Of a stretch of 64,000 nucleotides of DNA, positions 3,554 through 12,685 are shown one piece after another (positions within the stretch are counted from its first letter, which is position 1; the number at the start of each line of letters is the position of its first letter). The position numbers were made by a program, and so were the translations under genes. The DNA is taken from the IMG/VR virus record IMGVR_UViG_2579778941_000001; one strand, written 5' to 3'. The stretch comes from a virus. Lineage: Duplodnaviria; Heunggongvirae; Uroviricota; Caudoviricetes. The notes beneath the pieces are model-generated. The model was not told the origin of the DNA. It worked only from the letters and a program-made list of their open reading frames with translations, and searched no databases.

Positions 3554-3909
3554 AGCACCACGTCCTGTGTGATAGTTATATCCCTGATACGAATGGATAT
3601 TTTCAACTTATCAAAAGCATCTCCCTCGGCTACTGACAAGCCAGAAATCGGTATGTCAGGTAAATCTACCGTCAGTTTTTGCAACAGCATTGCCTCAACC
3701 GCAATTTGAACATGCGACAAGTTGGTCGGTTCGTGTTTAAACAGCGGTAAAACATTGCCCCATGACGGATCTCCGTATACCTCACCCTGATAAGTGTTTA
3801 GCCACTCATATAAACGAGCGCCCCAGGCCTCCTCCTGGGACTCATACGTTTTTACGCCGGATAACTCCAGCGTCAGCAAAGGATCAATTTCGTTATTGTT
3901 GGCCATCAA
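3550..3909 (-). CDS. Small baseplate protein (gpW/gp25-like)
   Basis: 119-aa ORF overlapping stop of sit and start of next gene. Confidence 0.45.
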   Translation of the reverse strand: MMANNNEIDPLLTLELSGVKTYESQEEAWGARLYEWLNTYQGEVYGDPSWGNVLPLFKHEPTNLSHVQIAVEAMLLQKLTVDLPDIPISGLSVAEGDAFDKLKISIRIRDITITQDVVL

Positions 3910-6900
3910 TCAACTCTCGCGTAGTCATTCATCAACGGATCATCAATTGACAGTGGTACCGTGCGCATAACGCCCGGCTGAGGCGTGCTGACCTTTACGA
4001 CAGTTCCCTGGCCTTTCGCCGAGTCTTTGGTGTGCTCTTCAATCCTGGCAAGCAATGAGGTCATCTGCGCAAACAGCCGCTTCGTTTCACCATCAAGTGA
4101 AACGGTATTATCAGCCAACTGCATTGTCGGCTTGGCACCGGAACCGCCAAGGTCACTAATAACCTGCCCGTCTATCTGCATACGACCGGTTGGTTGCTGC
4201 AAATCGTTGGCGGCAGTCGTCACCTGGGACGTGGAGGCTGGTTCAGGCGCATTATTTTTCCGCATCCCCGGCGAGTTGCGGAGTTTATCGAATAGTCCAT
4301 CAATCCCCATTTGTGCGCCGAGATGGTCAAAGTAACTTGAGTTGTTGGCCACCGGACGCGCCTCTTCAACTGGCATCGGAGTATCAACATACACATTGCC
4401 AGCTGCTGTTGCGGTCCCCTTCTCTCGTGCACGTTCTTCTAGCGTTCCCTGAACGACTTCCCGACGCATCCCCCGGCCATTCATGAATTTGTTGACCAGA
4501 TCGTTAACGCCAACAGCATTGCCGATTTTGTCGACCAGACCGCCTTTCTCAAACGGGCTATCACCAGGGGTAAACGCCAGGCCAGTATACTGATCGATAA
4601 CAGCGTTATCAGGCAGTGGTCCCCTCACTCCATATTGCGCCCCACCCTGTGCTCCTGCTCCAGGTGTATAGATTTCACCACCTAAATAGCGAGCACGATG
4701 AGTATTGACCTTGATCGCGTACTCACGGTTTTCTTTCGATAAGTCACCGGTGCCTTTTTTCCACTTATTAATAGTGCCAAACCCAGCATTATATGCAGTG
4801 ATGGCCTCGTTTAAGTCTCCATTGGCTTGCTTAAGATACTTGCTCATGAGAAGAGCCGCAGCTTCTGCCGATTTCACAGGATCAAACGATTCACCTTCAG
4901 CTAAGCCAGTCTCTTCACGAGCAATCCCCGTGAACTGAAACATCCCCAGAGCACCGGTTTGGGATTTTGCATACGGATTACCACCAGATTCAGTTGCAGC
5001 AATCGCGTAAAGAGTGCCTTCTGGAAGACCGTATTTATTCTCTAGTTCGGCAAAATACGGAGCCAACTTATCGAGATTTGCCTTACCTTCAGCGCCAAGA
5101 CTTCCGACTTTTACATCTAATTTGCCATTGTTGTAAGTATCCGCAGCTTTCTGAATGTCATTCCTGGTGCCAGTGGTATTAAGCGACGATGATGACGAGC
5201 TATTTTGACCAATAGCTTTATCAATTTTCTGCAACGCGCTATTGCCCGTTTCTACGGCATTTGCATTGATAATCTGATTGGCAGTTTGTTTAACTGTTTT
5301 ATTGCTATCTTTCGCTGTGTCCAGTGCCGCATTTATCACGCGGGTAGCAATATTACTCTGTTTGGCATCGGATTCAGTTTTAGAATCAGACGTCTCCTGG
5401 TGGCTATTAACCGGAGCTTTTAACTCCGGAGTGATTTCTTTCGCATTAGCCTCGCCGATCGGATTGGGTATTTTTGATACAATCATTGCCGCAGGGGTAT
5501 TTTTAACGGCATCAACCGCTGCATCTAATGCTTTACCAGGTAAATTTTTAACCCCATCCCAAATATTACCAGCCGCCTCTTTAATGTGTTTCCCTGGGTT
5601 CTTAATGAAATCAATTGCACTATCAATTGCATCACTGAAAACCTGTTTCAGGTTATCAACAGTAAAGAAGTCTTTGATGGCATCCAGCTTTTCAAGCAGC
5701 TTATTAGATGTATCGCTAAACCATGCTGAAACAGCATCACCAATCTTTGCTGTGTAATCTTCGAACTTGGTAGAAATGGTGTCGCCAAGGTTAGAAATAT
5801 ATGTTTCTAAGTTGGTAATCCCACTATCAATGGCCTGGGCAATACTTTCCGTCGAAAATGATTGCAACATATTGCCGATATCCTCAAATCCAAGTGATTT
5901 GAGAACCTCACCAATGGCGCTGCTAATACCAGATACCAGTCCCCCCATATCAAGAACATTGGCTAACGTATAAGCGGCTTTTTGCTGGAATGATGGCTCT
6001 TGTCCTGATTTAAGCCCAAACGCTCGACGTTGCGCTTCTGTATCATTCCAACCGGTTACCGCATCATAAATACCTCCAGCCACTGTGCCGACTAAGGGAA
6101 TTGCGCGTAACGCCCCTTTACCAACTGCCTTTAATCCAAATTTACCTGCTGCCCGGGCAGCCAAATCTCCACCTTCATGGGCGATAGTCTTCTTGCCACC
6201 ACCGCGTAGCATTCCTACAAGTTTCTTTGCCCCCAGAGCGCCAAAAGCGAGTGCTCCAGCTTTTTTCAGCATGCCACGCCCCATTAACAACGACGCGACG
6301 CCACCGGCCCCCTTCCCTAACAGGCTAAATAGTTTGGACAGCAAGCCGCCCTTCTTTTTCCCGGTGTTTTTGGCTATCTGATCAAGGGCGCTGAGAATCT
6401 TGTCATTGCCCTCTTTAATTTCGCTGGTCTGCTCCTGAAGTTCCTGAACCGTCCGTTTTTGGGTGTTAACCTGAACGACATCGGCACTATTTTGCGATTT
6501 ACGCCTAAAAAAACCTTTTCTACGGCTGTTATCGTCATTGCCACGAATCACATCGGCAATAGACTTTCTGGCGCCATTAAGCGATCCACCAACTTCTTTT
6601 GATATCCCGCCAAGCTCCTTCCCTGCTGCCCACAATGGACCAGCAACGGCATAACCTAACGCATCGACGGCACGAGTCTCTGAAGGGTTACCTATGCCTT
6701 CAGCTACTTTTGACAGTTTTTTTAATAAACCTGATTCAGCATTTAGACGCTCATCATCCTCTTTGCGCCTGGCCTTTTCAGCACGTTCAGCACGGGCATC
6801 TTCCGCTGCGGCCTTACTCCCTGACTTTCCAATAAAACGACCACGCGCATCGCGTTGGTTTTGGCTTTTTTGCGCACCGCCTTTTTGATCGAACATTTCG

Positions 6901-7595
6901 CGAGCGTGTTCGGCTGCTTCGGTCCGTTGTGCCTTTATATCCTCTGATATAGCCTTCCTGCGTCTTTTTTTACCCTTTGGTGTAGTTGATTTGGCCTGCT
7001 GTTCCTGTTGAGCAATGCCCTCCTGAACTACACGAGAAACGTCCCCTAAATTAAGCCGTTTCATTGCGTCAACAATAGGGTCTACTGATGGCGCATTGGC
7101 CACAAAGTCTGGCCGGGAATTTTCGATTGTTCGATTTAATGCCGACACACTGCGAGATACTGGGTCAACCGTTGCAACGCGTTCCCCTTTCAAATCACGA
7201 GCGAGTTTGACCGTTTCTAACCGCTGTGCTTTAACATCCTCTGTTATTGCCTCTCTTCGTCTATTTGGGGGATTGTGCGCTGTTGGTGCAGCCTGCTGTT
7301 CACGGTTAGTGACTTTGTCCTCCCGTATACGAGAAACGTCCCCTAAATTAAGCCGTTTCATTGCGTCAACAATAGAGTCCACTGATGGCACATTGGTCAC
7401 AAAGTCAGGACGTGAATTTTCGATTGTGCGATTTAATGCCGACACACTGCGAGAGACAGGATCAACAGTTGCAACTCGTTCCCCTTTCAAATCTTCAACA
7501 GCTTCCCGAATACCTGCAAGCTCTTCCAGCTCTTTCGCGCTGGCGGTTTCAACTGTCCTTATAACATCGTCAATATTGGCGTTTTTTCTTTCCAT
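3906..7595 (-). CDS. sit: Sit-like tape-measure/injection protein with soluble lytic transglycosylase domain
   Basis: 1229-aa ORF; SLT motif region LYAIAATESGGNPYAKSQTGALGMFQF; Gly/Ala/Lys-rich low-complexity segments typical of tape-measure proteins. Confidence 0.8.
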   Translation of the reverse strand: MERKNANIDDVIRTVETASAKELEELAGIREAVEDLKGERVATVDPVSRSVSALNRTIENSRPDFVTNVPSVDSIVDAMKRLNLGDVSRIREDKVTNREQQAAPTAHNPPNRRREAITEDVKAQRLETVKLARDLKGERVATVDPVSRSVSALNRTIENSRPDFVANAPSVDPIVDAMKRLNLGDVSRVVQEGIAQQEQQAKSTTPKGKKRRRKAISEDIKAQRTEAAEHAREMFDQKGGAQKSQNQRDARGRFIGKSGSKAAAEDARAERAEKARRKEDDERLNAESGLLKKLSKVAEGIGNPSETRAVDALGYAVAGPLWAAGKELGGISKEVGGSLNGARKSIADVIRGNDDNSRRKGFFRRKSQNSADVVQVNTQKRTVQELQEQTSEIKEGNDKILSALDQIAKNTGKKKGGLLSKLFSLLGKGAGGVASLLMGRGMLKKAGALAFGALGAKKLVGMLRGGGKKTIAHEGGDLAARAAGKFGLKAVGKGALRAIPLVGTVAGGIYDAVTGWNDTEAQRRAFGLKSGQEPSFQQKAAYTLANVLDMGGLVSGISSAIGEVLKSLGFEDIGNMLQSFSTESIAQAIDSGITNLETYISNLGDTISTKFEDYTAKIGDAVSAWFSDTSNKLLEKLDAIKDFFTVDNLKQVFSDAIDSAIDFIKNPGKHIKEAAGNIWDGVKNLPGKALDAAVDAVKNTPAAMIVSKIPNPIGEANAKEITPELKAPVNSHQETSDSKTESDAKQSNIATRVINAALDTAKDSNKTVKQTANQIINANAVETGNSALQKIDKAIGQNSSSSSSLNTTGTRNDIQKAADTYNNGKLDVKVGSLGAEGKANLDKLAPYFAELENKYGLPEGTLYAIAATESGGNPYAKSQTGALGMFQFTGIAREETGLAEGESFDPVKSAEAAALLMSKYLKQANGDLNEAITAYNAGFGTINKWKKGTGDLSKENREYAIKVNTHRARYLGGEIYTPGAGAQGGAQYGVRGPLPDNAVIDQYTGLAFTPGDSPFEKGGLVDKIGNAVGVNDLVNKFMNGRGMRREVVQGTLEERAREKGTATAAGNVYVDTPMPVEEARPVANNSSYFDHLGAQMGIDGLFDKLRNSPGMRKNNAPEPASTSQVTTAANDLQQPTGRMQIDGQVISDLGGSGAKPTMQLADNTVSLDGETKRLFAQMTSLLARIEEHTKDSAKGQGTVVKVSTPQPGVMRTVPLSIDDPLMNDYARVD

Positions 7596-9194: not shown

Positions 9195-9785
<591 letters not shown>

Positions 9786-9819
9786 TTAACCGATTCTACG
9801 AGTAGTCATTTGTGACAGG

Positions 9820-10296
9820 TCATTTTGCGCGCTTCAGGCAGCCATCTTCAGGTGCCGCGTTGAAAAGCTCTGCGGCCTTACGTAGCGTAAATGTTGCGAT
9901 TTTTTTTCCGTCTACGTATGCATCGAATGTTTTTACTTCCATATCAGGGGTATCTGACCAAAAACCATACCAGTAACTATCACCCACAGAGGAACCGATA
10001 GAACTTATAGGATATTCATCATCACCAACTTTCAGCGTTATTTGTTCTTTTTTAGCATCAAATGACTCACCGCCAGGTTCTGTTTTCATGAGAGTGAGTA
10101 GTCGTGTTCCTACTTGATTGGGATCCGTATTATTAAATCCAACATCGCACTCAAATGTAAGCGTATAATTATCTTTGCTGGAAACAGCATAAGAACGAAC
10201 ACCATGAGTCTCGCCGGTTGACCATTTGCTTACATTTGCCATTGATGAAAATGGAGTAAGCAAAGCAAGAATTAGAAAAAATCGTTTGATGCGCAT
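9820..10296 (-). CDS. Secreted/periplasmic protein with N-terminal signal peptide
   Basis: 158 aa; N-terminus MRIKRFFLILALLTPFSSMA is a classical signal peptide. Confidence 0.45.
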   Translation of the reverse strand: MRIKRFFLILALLTPFSSMANVSKWSTGETHGVRSYAVSSKDNYTLTFECDVGFNNTDPNQVGTRLLTLMKTEPGGESFDAKKEQITLKVGDDEYPISSIGSSVGDSYWYGFWSDTPDMEVKTFDAYVDGKKIATFTLRKAAELFNAAPEDGCLKRAK

Positions 10297-10357
10297 TAAT
10301 TTATCTCCTTTGGATATTAACGATTATCAATATTTTAATTGGTTATCCATAATATAT

Positions 10358-11032
10358 TTACCATTCATATGGTAAATTAAGCGCTTTTAAACCTTGCTGA
10401 AAGGTATTAAGTGAGCCGTTCTTTTGTTGTTCCATTTGTTCGCGTGCCGCTTTCTCATACTGCTCCATCCGTTGGTTATACTCTTGCAATTCCTCTGGTG
10501 AGAGGTTTCCCATTGGGGAGTTTGTACCCGGCCCCCTGGCCCGCTCTTCAAGCGTACCCTGCACGTTTTGATGGCGCATTCCAGGGGCATTTCTGATTGA
10601 GTCAATGCCATTTCTTCCAACGTCTTCTTTATTAACGGCATTGCTCGCCACCAGCACACCCCAGCTAGGAATAGCAAAATCAGGAGCGGTTTCGCATGCC
10701 TTTACCATATAATCGAAAGAGCTTCGATTGATCTCGTTTGCGTCGGGATTTAACAGGCGAGAATATTGATATTTAGCATTTTCGTTGGTTGCGACTTTAT
10801 ACAGTTCTTGCTGCACCATCGCTTCAGAAAGTTTAAGGCGTTTCATATCTGACAGTAACTTCTTGCGCATGGATTCGTCTTGACTGACAGCAAAGCCGTA
10901 AACGTGCCCAAGATATTTCGTATAATCGGTACAAATCTCCTTTACGCTTGATGCTGCATTAACAGTCCCAGCCATAAATAATAACGATAGTAATAGTTTT
11001 CTCATTATAACCTCACCTGCCTTATAACTCAT
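10358..11032 (-). CDS. Periplasmic protein, candidate superinfection-exclusion Sim-like (true start probably the Met at 11005)
   Basis: 224 aa; internal MRKLLLSLLFMAGTVNA signal peptide; location just upstream of the c4/icd/ant immunity region; shares a motif with Sit C-terminus. Confidence 0.45.
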   Translation of the reverse strand: MSYKAGEVIMRKLLLSLLFMAGTVNAASSVKEICTDYTKYLGHVYGFAVSQDESMRKKLLSDMKRLKLSEAMVQQELYKVATNENAKYQYSRLLNPDANEINRSSFDYMVKACETAPDFAIPSWGVLVASNAVNKEDVGRNGIDSIRNAPGMRHQNVQGTLEERARGPGTNSPMGNLSPEELQEYNQRMEQYEKAAREQMEQQKNGSLNTFQQGLKALNLPYEW

Positions 11033-11101
11033 TTAGGGTACATATTTTCGCCTTTAAAAAAAAGAGGTTATTAGATCCAATTGTGTATTTATTAAGCACA
11101 C

Positions 11102-11118
11102 AATGCTCTAATAAATTT
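11102..11118 (+). promoter_or_regulatory. C1 operator-like site upstream of the c4-icd-ant transcription unit
   Basis: AATGCTCTAATAAATTT, one mismatch to the operator consensus ATTGCTCTAATAAATTT. Confidence 0.5.
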
Positions 11119-11299
11119 GTATTTTTAAGTCGCGAATGCTATCTTTTCGCATCATATTGACCTTTTAATCGTTCAGGCTTATAGTTCCGCCGTCGTAGCA
11201 AATTCTGCGACCGGGTTTAGCAGCCTGAATGTTAGTGCGGACAACCGCAGATATCCGATATTGCGGTATTTTTGTGTCCGTAAAACCGCGTTACGCCCA

Positions 11300-11380
11300 A
11301 ATTATGGTGGGGCGTGATGGGGAGGCTTCGGCCTGCTGGTTTCACTAACGCCAGTCTGCTAACCCCGTCACGTCCTGCCA
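11300..11380 (+). ncRNA. c4: c4-type antisense repressor RNA (boundaries approximate)
   Basis: Segment contains TCACTAAC and CTGCTAACC, complementary to repeated target elements GTTTAGCAG and TGTTAGTG found upstream (11213-11236) and at the icd ribosome-binding region (11385-11418). Confidence 0.4.
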
Positions 11381-11432
11381 CCTGTTTAGCAGCGGGTAGC
11401 AGGTTGTTAAACCTGTTAGTGAGGCCGTAACT

Positions 11433-11654
11433 ATGGTTAATGCCAATCCTTGCGCACGCCAAGAATTCATCTGGCGTTTCTATTCCTGTAAAAAACACCA
11501 CTATCACTTCGTTATCGCAGCAACAGAAGACGAAGCACGCTCTCAATTGCCTGATGGCCCCTGCATTTTTACTGCCCGTTTTTCAACTAACTCGCGCAAT
11601 TCACTTAGTTACTGGAGCCTCCCCTTCTCTGCCGACGTTCAGGGGGGTTTATGA
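11433..11654 (+). CDS. icd: Icd-like small protein (inhibitor of cell division), translationally coupled to ant
   Basis: 73-aa ORF whose stop overlaps ant start in ATGA. Confidence 0.5.
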   Translation: MVNANPCARQEFIWRFYSCKKHHYHFVIAATEDEARSQLPDGPCIFTARFSTNSRNSLSYWSLPFSADVQGGL

Positions 11655-12685
11655 AAACACCTCTCGTCACCCGTAATGAAATAGCCGAAGCGATCGCCTT
11701 GCATACAATCTGTATGCCGACACGGGAGATCCCCGGCGCAATTGCCAACTATTTCATGATAACCAGGCGTTTTTATACCCGAACAGATAAGGCTGTGATC
11801 AACAGGCTACTGATAGCCGAGATCAGGGATTATTTGATTGAACAAGGACGTCTACGTTACGCAACAGTGGCAGCAGAAATGAGAAAGGAGGCACATAGAA
11901 TGACCGGTAATAATTTAAATGTTGAAAAACCAGCACCTGTTGCTTCAGCTACGCCAGCACCAGCCCTGAATGTCATCCCCAACACCGGAGACACAATCGA
12001 CAGCCAAACATTGTTGAAGATGGTCAATGAGGCACGGAAATTATGTAGCGAAAAACCAGTTCGCAACAATGATTTCATTGCCAGAGTTAAGGATGAGCTT
12101 GAAGGAGAAACCTACGAAATTTTCGTAGGTCAAAAAAACGGCGCAGAAATAGATATTATAACCATGACCTACAAACAAGCCCTGCGAGTTGCCGCGCGCG
12201 AGTCAAAAGCGGTCCGCCGTTCGCTGATCGACAAACTGGAAGAATTACAGCAGGCAAACTCCCCTACCCCATCGATCCCCCAAACATTACCAGAAGCCCT
12301 ACGCCTGGCTGCCGAGTTGGCAGAACAGAAAATGCATCTGGAACAACAGCTGGTGGCCGCAGCACCTAAAGTCGATTTTGCCGACCGGGTATCAGTGGCT
12401 AATGGAATCCTGATCGGTAACTTTGCAAAGGTCGTTGGACTTAAGCAAAACGCCCTTTTCTCATGGTTGCGCCAGAACGGCATTCTCATGGCTTTTGGTG
12501 CGCGCAAAAACGTACCGCGCCAGCAGTACATTAACGCCGGGTATTTCACGGTGAAAGAAGTGGTGCTGGATGATGAAAATGGCTATCAGATACGGCTGAC
12601 GCCACAATTAACGGGTAAAGGCCAGCAGTGGTTAACTCGCAAGCTACTTGATGCTGGTTTGTTAAAACCAGTAGCAATAGGTTAA
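11651..12685 (+). CDS. ant1: Antirepressor Ant
   Basis: 344 aa; C-terminal 110 aa (PEALRLAAELAEQK...GKGQQWL...LLDAG) is an antirepressor C-terminal domain also present in the adjacent KilA ORF. Confidence 0.65.
   Translation: MKTPLVTRNEIAEAIALHTICMPTREIPGAIANYFMITRRFYTRTDKAVINRLLIAEIRDYLIEQGRLRYATVAAEMRKEAHRMTGNNLNVEKPAPVASATPAPALNVIPNTGDTIDSQTLLKMVNEARKLCSEKPVRNNDFIARVKDELEGETYEIFVGQKNGAEIDIITMTYKQALRVAARESKAVRRSLIDKLEELQQANSPTPSIPQTLPEALRLAAELAEQKMHLEQQLVAAAPKVDFADRVSVANGILIGNFAKVVGLKQNALFSWLRQNGILMAFGARKNVPRQQYINAGYFTVKEVVLDDENGYQIRLTPQLTGKGQQWLTRKLLDAGLLKPVAIG

Follow-up and report, generated by a model that had tools for sequence, protein, structure and literature searches.

A secreted protein of a P1-like phage-plasmid shares a short, conserved peptide with the tape measure Sit

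The whole 64,000-nucleotide stretch of DNA (the window), from IMG/VR virus record IMGVR_UViG_2579778941_000001, belongs to a P1-like phage-plasmid (Punavirus). Two of its genes are at issue: sit, which encodes the tape measure, and a gene for a secreted protein that we call full-length SimA. A preliminary description of the window had noticed that the two products share a motif and had proposed that a superinfection-exclusion protein mimics a segment of the injected tail protein. The reading frames and motif positions given there are exact, and the features on which the argument turns are the following.

10358..11032, minus strand: open reading frame of the secreted protein, full-length SimA, 224 residues as listed (phrog_3933, E=2.5e-136)
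10955..11005, minus strand: Sec signal peptide MRKLLLSLLFMAGTVNA, predicted cleavage VNA/AS, no lipobox cysteine
10616..10948, minus strand: orphan all-helical N-terminal domain with two invariant cysteines
10502..10603, minus strand: tape-measure-like linear motif DSIRNAPGMRHQNVQGTLEERARGPGTNSPMGNL, core at 10535..10582
3906..7595, minus strand: sit, tape measure and lytic transglycosylase of 1229 residues (PF01464 SLT, E=2.3e-27; phrog_2533)
4728..5057, minus strand: SLT lytic transglycosylase domain of Sit, residues 847-956
4392..4496, minus strand: Sit motif copy 1, VNKFMNGRGMRREVVQGTLEERAREKGTATAAGNV, residues 1034-1068, core at 4425..4472
4251..4304, minus strand: Sit motif copy 2, a half motif, IDGLFDKLRNSPGMRKNN, residues 1098-1115

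The shared segment is about 35 residues long (10502..10603 against 4392..4496), longer than first noted. Its core, GMRHQNVQGTLEERAR at 10535..10582 in the secreted protein and GMRREVVQGTLEERAR at 4425..4472 in Sit, is identical at 13/16 positions, and 18 of the 32 residues of the extended segment are the same; the same way of counting as in the preliminary description recovers the eleven identities in fourteen residues reported there. The second Sit copy, RNSPGMRKNN (4251..4280), has its GMR 68 residues past that of copy 1 and 49 past the end of copy 1, where a distance of about 50 had been given. BLASTP finds 22/47 identities between the secreted protein and Sit at copy 1 (E=1e-7) and a weaker match at copy 2 (E=0.017). 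When searched reciprocally against PHROG, the secreted reading frame hits phrog_2533, the Sit family, with E=8.6e-8, and Sit hits phrog_3933 with E=1.3e-3. The profile alignment that had been called for, family against family with hhalign, gives a probability of 95% and E=3.9e-8 over 35 columns only, which span residues 135-168 of the secreted protein (215-residue numbering) and 1034-1068 of Sit. The similarity is far beyond chance, and the homology is real and restricted to the motif. The helical domain has no counterpart in Sit; the 224-residue protein possesses neither the SLT domain nor the long helical tape-measure region that characterize Sit, and its 35-residue motif alone matches phrog_2533. 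The consensus reads [FLI]-x-N-[ASG]-[PR]-G-M-R-x-[QE]-x-V-x-G-[TS]-L-x-[ED]-R-A-x-G.

At the DNA level, identity is 33/48 (69%) over the core and 57/96 (59%) over the extended segment. Third codon positions agree in 12/32 cases, and 13 of the 18 identical residues are specified by different codons. Since the codons are scrambled while the motif is conserved, the sharing must be old and the peptide kept by selection, rather than produced by a recent duplication or gene conversion; the preliminary description had likewise argued against a recent duplication.

How specific is the motif? A profile of 45 columns, built from eight motif instances, was run against 1.84e9 representative proteins, chosen one per cluster after about 15 billion proteins had been grouped at 50% identity. 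The search returned 12 matches at E<=1e-3, ten of which are Sit-like tape measures (1081-1367 residues), fragments of these, or relatives of the secreted protein (176-222 residues). The two weakest are unrelated tandem-repeat proteins, matched by chance. The motif is therefore not a common low-complexity feature, the outcome that the preliminary description had named as a refutation. In addition, a pattern scan of 2.9 million viral contigs gave 124 confirmed matches at 71 loci, all of them P1-like. Outside the secreted family, the motif is confined to the region of Sit between the transglycosylase domain and the C-terminal end.

Within this restricted distribution the peptide is strongly conserved. 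The segment is retained in diverged Sit proteins, where it often resembles that of the secreted protein more closely than the window Sit does (APGMRHQVVQGTLAERAYGRGTTTTMGNV, NAPGMRHQVATGSMADRAYGMGTSTMMGNT), and a tape measure of 1367 residues, at 31% identity, carries two AEGMRHQV copies. Seven Sit homologues, with identities down to 31%, all have G1042, M1043, R1044, G1050 and R1055. The invariant residues of the secreted family are N139, G142, M143, R144 and Q146, which a Pantoea homologue at 39% overall identity has as well. In that family, mean pairwise identity reaches 0.82 over the half motif, against 0.65 over the folded domain, 0.27 over the linker preceding the motif and 0.08 over the tail. 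Sit homologues show 0.67 in the motif core versus 0.51 in the SLT domain. No other stretch of the secreted family is as conserved as the core, which in the Sit family also surpasses the SLT domain. A dibasic cleavage site of the OmpT type was considered and rejected: P1-type Sit has RR or RK after GMR, but neither the secreted protein nor diverged Sit does.

As had been described, the motif belongs to the C-terminal region of Sit. It is found about 85 residues past the SLT domain, between that domain and the C-terminal end, within the C-terminal ~190 residues. Copy 2 sits in an insertion of the P1 type, and single-copy variants of Sit exist without this insertion. The C-terminal ~95 residues, after copy 2, are strongly conserved. 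In an AlphaFold2 (AF2) model of residues 830-1229, the SLT domain alone is predicted with confidence; the predicted local distance difference test score (pLDDT) is about 30 beyond residue ~975, motif included. The C-terminus of a tape measure lies in the baseplate hub and is the first part out of the tail. The Sit motif would presumably be among the first parts of Sit to enter the periplasm. In P1, Sit is the tape measure and carries an SLT domain (PMC9024508, PMC12810830), is not resolved in the cryo-electron microscopy structures of the virion (PMC12810830), and is essential for lytic growth, for which all sim genes are dispensable (PMC10695390).

Some side observations concern Sit itself. 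At its conserved C-terminus (3909-3980, residues ~1205-1229), the sequence QPGVMRT loosely resembles the PGMR core, a resemblance that may be due to chance. The sit gene also contains a 212-nucleotide direct repeat (6985-7196 and 7282-7493; spacing of 297 nucleotides, 84% identity), which amounts to an internal duplication of 99 residues in the N-terminal part; Sit has 1229 residues here versus 1140 in P1. Some ten P1-like loci in IMG/VR have Sit frames of similar extra length (1237-1257 codons), suggesting, from frame length, that the longer Sit may be a common allele. Phages with a long Sit would be expected to have longer tails if tail length follows tape-measure length.

The reading frame of the secreted protein stands as listed in the preliminary description, but the product is probably shorter than the 224 residues given there. 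The mechanical start is at 11032; the probable start is the ATG at 11005, giving 215 residues, because a ribosome-binding site (GGTGAGG) lies 5 nucleotides ahead of this ATG and the RefSeq homologue gp35 (NC_050153), of 215 residues, is annotated from the equivalent codon. The n-, h- and c-regions and the AXA-type site of the signal peptide can be read from the sequence and are kept across the family. This typical Sec signal peptide, which has no lipobox, agrees with the secretion already proposed, and the protein is presumably exported to the periplasm by way of this cleavable peptide. With neither lipobox nor transmembrane segment, it is predicted to be soluble there. When AF2 is given the family alignment, the helical domain (residues 20-130) is predicted with confidence (pLDDT 85-94); the motif stretch that follows is predicted to be disordered (pLDDT 33-44) and is succeeded by a weakly predicted C-terminal helix. 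A structure search with the helical domain found no significant neighbour. A Pfam match to PTP-like phytase (PF14566), just under the gathering threshold, was rejected, the catalytic C-x5-R P-loop being absent.

The family is modular. After an invariant N-x-[PR]-G-M-R-x-Q, four continuations are found: the second half of the motif, V-x-G-T-L-E-x-R-A-R-G, plus a helical tail, as in the window; the second half followed by a stop, giving a natural form of 172 residues with nothing beyond the full motif; the second half and then a Cys-hairpin module; and one or two Cys-hairpin modules directly, without the second half. The half motif is kept in three differing C-terminal architectures. A 96-residue open reading frame in another frame (10387-10677, minus strand) overlaps the motif region, and several 205-residue 'proteins' from Logan assemblies (P0002, P0004, P0007, P0008, P0016) are frameshifted fusions into it, most likely assembly errors and not true variants.

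The gene is not part of the late tail operon and is located between that operon and immI (c4-icd-ant). Nucleotides 9700-11700 of the window are 97% identical to Escherichia phage vB_EcoM-Ro157c2YLVW, and P1 and P7 match this region in its flanks only, pmgC on one side and c4-icd-ant on the other. Comparison of annotated genomes shows that the interval from pmgC to c4 is a replaceable slot. It holds simA-simB-simC in P1, a lipoprotein and a DUF5384 protein (annotated as a membrane protein) in P7, and two other genes in the window and in Ro157c2YLVW; elsewhere, too, the slot proteins include envelope proteins. The simABC genes form one of eight hypervariable regions in P1-like plasmids (PMC9603915). 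Further slot alleles occur in other P1-like plasmids, where a protein of 344-389 residues, annotated as SH3 domain-containing and without an obvious signal peptide at its N-terminus, is encoded downstream of a SimA-like gene and its partner (L009, 10628-11662; L012, 10089-11258).

The secreted protein had been labelled Sim-like. This holds in that its gene occupies the same slot and is homologous to P1 simA, but not with respect to SimC (264 residues): no open reading frame of the window gives a BLASTP match to SimC, and the two proteins fall into different PHROGs (phrog_14355 for SimC, phrog_3933 here). What we say of P1 genes relies on the GenBank annotation and on other papers. The locus, the orientation and the upstream region are those of the P1 sim operon, and P1 simA, of 52 codons, matches the first ~50 codons of the window gene, signal peptide included (tblastn, 86% over residues 1-57 against the P1 simA region; BLASTP, 92% over 50 residues). 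The two DNAs align collinearly, beginning in the promoter region, up to about codon 50, and the break falls exactly at the start of simB (P1 NC_005856 2898-3056, window 10880-11032). On this comparison, the window gene is the intact form of P1 simA, and P1 simA a truncated 5' remnant that lacks both helical domain and motif. This suggests that a simB-simC cassette replaced the gene from about codon 50 on in P1, or the reverse, and hence that cassettes of the slot are interchangeable. NCBI names some homologues 'simA domain protein'. Among 267 matching plasmids in PLSDB, 84 have a near full-length copy and most others the P1-type stump only; P1-like plasmids from Escherichia, Salmonella and Klebsiella commonly carry the intact gene. 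SimC is a signal-peptide protein too. Local BLAST detected no Sit similarity in P1 SimC or SimB, nor any similarity of other sim-slot proteins to virion proteins.

The neighbourhood of the gene contains a second secreted protein and, on the other side, the elements of P1-type immunity.

9820..10296, minus strand: second secreted protein, 158 residues, with a signal peptide and two conserved cysteines (phrog_3429)
11102..11118, plus strand: C1 repressor operator, equivalent to P1 Oc4/Op51, one mismatch to the consensus
11179..11231: a1b1 targets of C4 RNA
11300..11385: C4 antisense RNA

The C1 operator directly precedes both the simA promoter, which is predicted and points leftward, and the c4 promoters, which point rightward; in the P1 annotation, PsimA adjoins Oc4. 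Across the window, nine matches to the C1 operator consensus with 0-2 mismatches are found (positions 11102, 12764, 27413, 30689, 30700, 41123, 46888, 61917 and 62000), with 0.02 expected by chance, as expected of a P1-type immunity network.

The gene for the 158-residue protein is downstream of, and usually together with, the SimA-like gene; in diverged elements, homologues at 28-57% identity are found directly downstream of SimA-like genes. Precomputed annotation places PF27224 on homologues of this protein, and the precomputed matches occur only on P1-like contigs of about 90 kb. The family is nevertheless wider than P1-like elements: members without SimA-like genes are found on conjugative plasmids and as YkfB of E. 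coli K-12, in the cryptic prophage CP4-6, which is 31% identical to the 158-residue protein over 91% of the query (E=4e-6). PADLOC assigns neither secreted protein to any of its families; neither matches an annotated PHROG, Pfam or NCBIfam family, and neither resembles annotated exclusion families.

What could a secreted copy of a tape-measure peptide do? As the most economical mechanism, we tentatively favour the possibility that the protein is a periplasmic decoy, which displays the tape-measure motif and hampers genome delivery by related phages. According to this model, a protein predicted to be exported by the Sec pathway, and encoded with a second exported protein in the sim slot of a P1-like plasmid prophage, would consist of an orphan helical domain and a flexible tail presenting a linear motif of about 35 residues. 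Upon infection by a related phage, the C-terminal part of Sit would enter the periplasm first, and its motif would dock on a partner needed for assembly of the DNA conduit; a host envelope component, another phage tip protein or other Sit chains are candidates. In a lysogen, the resident periplasmic protein would offer the same peptide and compete for the docking, or poison it, so that the adsorbed phage would fail to deliver its DNA, that is, superinfection exclusion at the entry step. The model is coherent because the Sit motif belongs to the C-terminal part, presumed to come out of the tail first, and the view of the motif as a docking peptide stems from the predicted disorder of the segment in both proteins and its repetition in Sit. 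Also in line with a decoy are the signal peptide and the position of the gene, adjoining the C1 operator in the slot that holds SimC in P1. Further points in its favour are the homology confined to the motif, the restriction of the motif to two families of P1-like elements, its maintenance by purifying selection and over three C-terminal architectures, the apparent interchangeability of cassettes in a slot that houses an exclusion gene in P1, and the precedents for exclusion proteins with a tape measure as their target. That the protein is periplasmic and expressed in the lysogen, that the motif has a docking partner and that superinfecting phage is excluded are all inferred. The stronger proposal, that by prophage mimicry the secreted docking peptide stops incoming P1-like phages from completing a trans-envelope conduit, is more doubtful; if it were true, the shared 35-mer would mark a periplasmic interaction site used by P1 for DNA entry.

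A number of observations weigh against a decoy. The P1 annotation, which names SimC a superimmunity protein, puts superimmunity on simC, unrelated in sequence to the present gene; an exclusion role for this gene, or for P1 simA, is at most putative. Lysogen expression relies on a promoter predicted from the P1 annotation, and a promoter scan by consensus failed to flag it. The profile search of the 1.84e9 proteins found no host protein with a similar segment, and the motif is absent from all chains of solved structures in the PDB. Part of the secreted family carries only the first half of the motif. Finally, over about 60 loci, the motif variants of the secreted protein covary with the resident Sit without pointing to a specific target. 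The association is one of lineages only and favours none of the models over another: two-copy Sit of the P1 type occurs with full-motif forms, and single-copy Sit mostly with forms having a short motif and Cys hairpins, L010 being an exception.

The same data can be read in other ways. The motif might be a shared signal for processing, turnover or localization, such as a protease site or a peptidoglycan or envelope tether, the secreted protein having a role apart from exclusion, for instance in lysogenic conversion of the envelope. The shortness and conservation of the peptide would suit such a signal, and so would its position in disordered parts of two proteins that are exported or ejected. 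The look of a processing site, remarked on in the preliminary description, fits as well, as do the envelope proteins among the other cargo of the slot. A signal recognized by the host, however, should recur in host or other phage proteins, and the motif is confined to P1-like Sit and SimA-like proteins; since, moreover, the dibasic site after GMR is not conserved, we consider this explanation unlikely. Less likely again is that the motif is the binding site of a phage-encoded periplasmic binder, foremost the 158-residue protein, the two genes forming one unit: the 158-residue protein would capture the motif of incoming Sit, and the same peptide would allow the SimA-like protein to hold, position or regulate this binder. 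The family's place directly downstream in diverged elements, its faster evolution (28-57% identity versus 59-98% for SimA-like proteins), the signal peptide and conserved cysteine pair found in both proteins, and the disorder of the motif region on its own all fit this idea. It is harder to reconcile with the occurrence of the 158-residue family without SimA-like genes, on conjugative plasmids and as YkfB, and with the Pantoea SimA-like gene, beside which no gene of the partner family was detected.

Two further explanations appear weaker still. The secreted protein might inhibit the Sit transglycosylase, as T4 Sp acts on the gp5 lysozyme; the motif within Sit would normally touch the adjacent SLT domain, and the free motif would bind that domain in trans. 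The distance of about 85 residues between domain and motif, and the predicted presence of the secreted protein in the compartment where the SLT domain acts, are compatible with this. In the AF2 model, which covers Sit 830-1229, the motif is not packed on the SLT domain; at a pLDDT of ~30 this says little and is at best weakly negative. The 1.84e9-protein profile search did not find the motif in other SLT-domain families; we regard inhibition as improbable. The motif could also be a non-functional relic, a sit fragment recombined into a neighbouring accessory gene, given that the genes are some 6 kb apart in one genome and that the sim slot is a recombination hot spot (PMC9603915). Yet the peptide is retained although synonymous sites are saturated, it is the best-conserved part of the secreted family between flanks that are not conserved, and it persists over three C-terminal architectures. 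Because of this pattern of conservation, a relic is the least likely of the models, and very improbable.

Whichever reading applies, the finding pins down a short segment of Sit that is under strong constraint and has a natural soluble copy in a prophage, and it shows P1 simA in a new light, as what is left of a larger gene. The 35-mer, with its invariant G-M-R, provides a mutable handle for a partner search and for a test of decoy exclusion, and may bear on how P1 DNA crosses the periplasm. In the literature searched, we found no mention of the motif or of the full-length simA gene, and no description of a decoy-type exclusion mechanism.

HK97 gp15 is an exclusion protein that acts via the tape measure. 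The T4 exclusion protein Imm binds the tape measure gp29 (bioRxiv 10.64898/2026.03.06.709160), and the lipoprotein family of TP-J34 Ltp also excludes through the tape measure (PMC3952083). Like these phage-encoded, envelope-located proteins, which stop genome delivery after adsorption via the tape measure, the secreted protein is proposed to act in the envelope and to interfere with genome delivery through the tape measure. Imm, Ltp and gp15 are, however, membrane-anchored proteins or lipoproteins described as binding the tape measure, whereas the present protein is predicted to be soluble in the periplasm and contains a peptide that also occurs in a tape measure, pointing to competition or co-assembly rather than binding. 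The translocation epitopes of colicins are disordered as well, an example being the TolB box of colicin E9, which competes with Pal. The analogy is that an imported protein uses a linear disordered peptide to dock on a periplasmic partner, and that the outcome depends on which carrier of the epitope wins the competition; colicin epitopes have no sequence similarity to the motif. The tape measures of mycobacteriophages contain short motifs that resemble secreted host proteins (Rpf-like; PMC1796659). They offer a parallel in that a small conserved tape-measure motif is common to a secreted protein and linked to action at the cell wall during infection; they differ in being enzymatic peptidoglycan-hydrolase modules shared with the host, whereas here a non-enzymatic, disordered peptide is shared with a phage accessory protein. 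Envelope proteins by which prophages prevent entry are already known, and a soluble mimic of the tape measure would add a further form to that kind.
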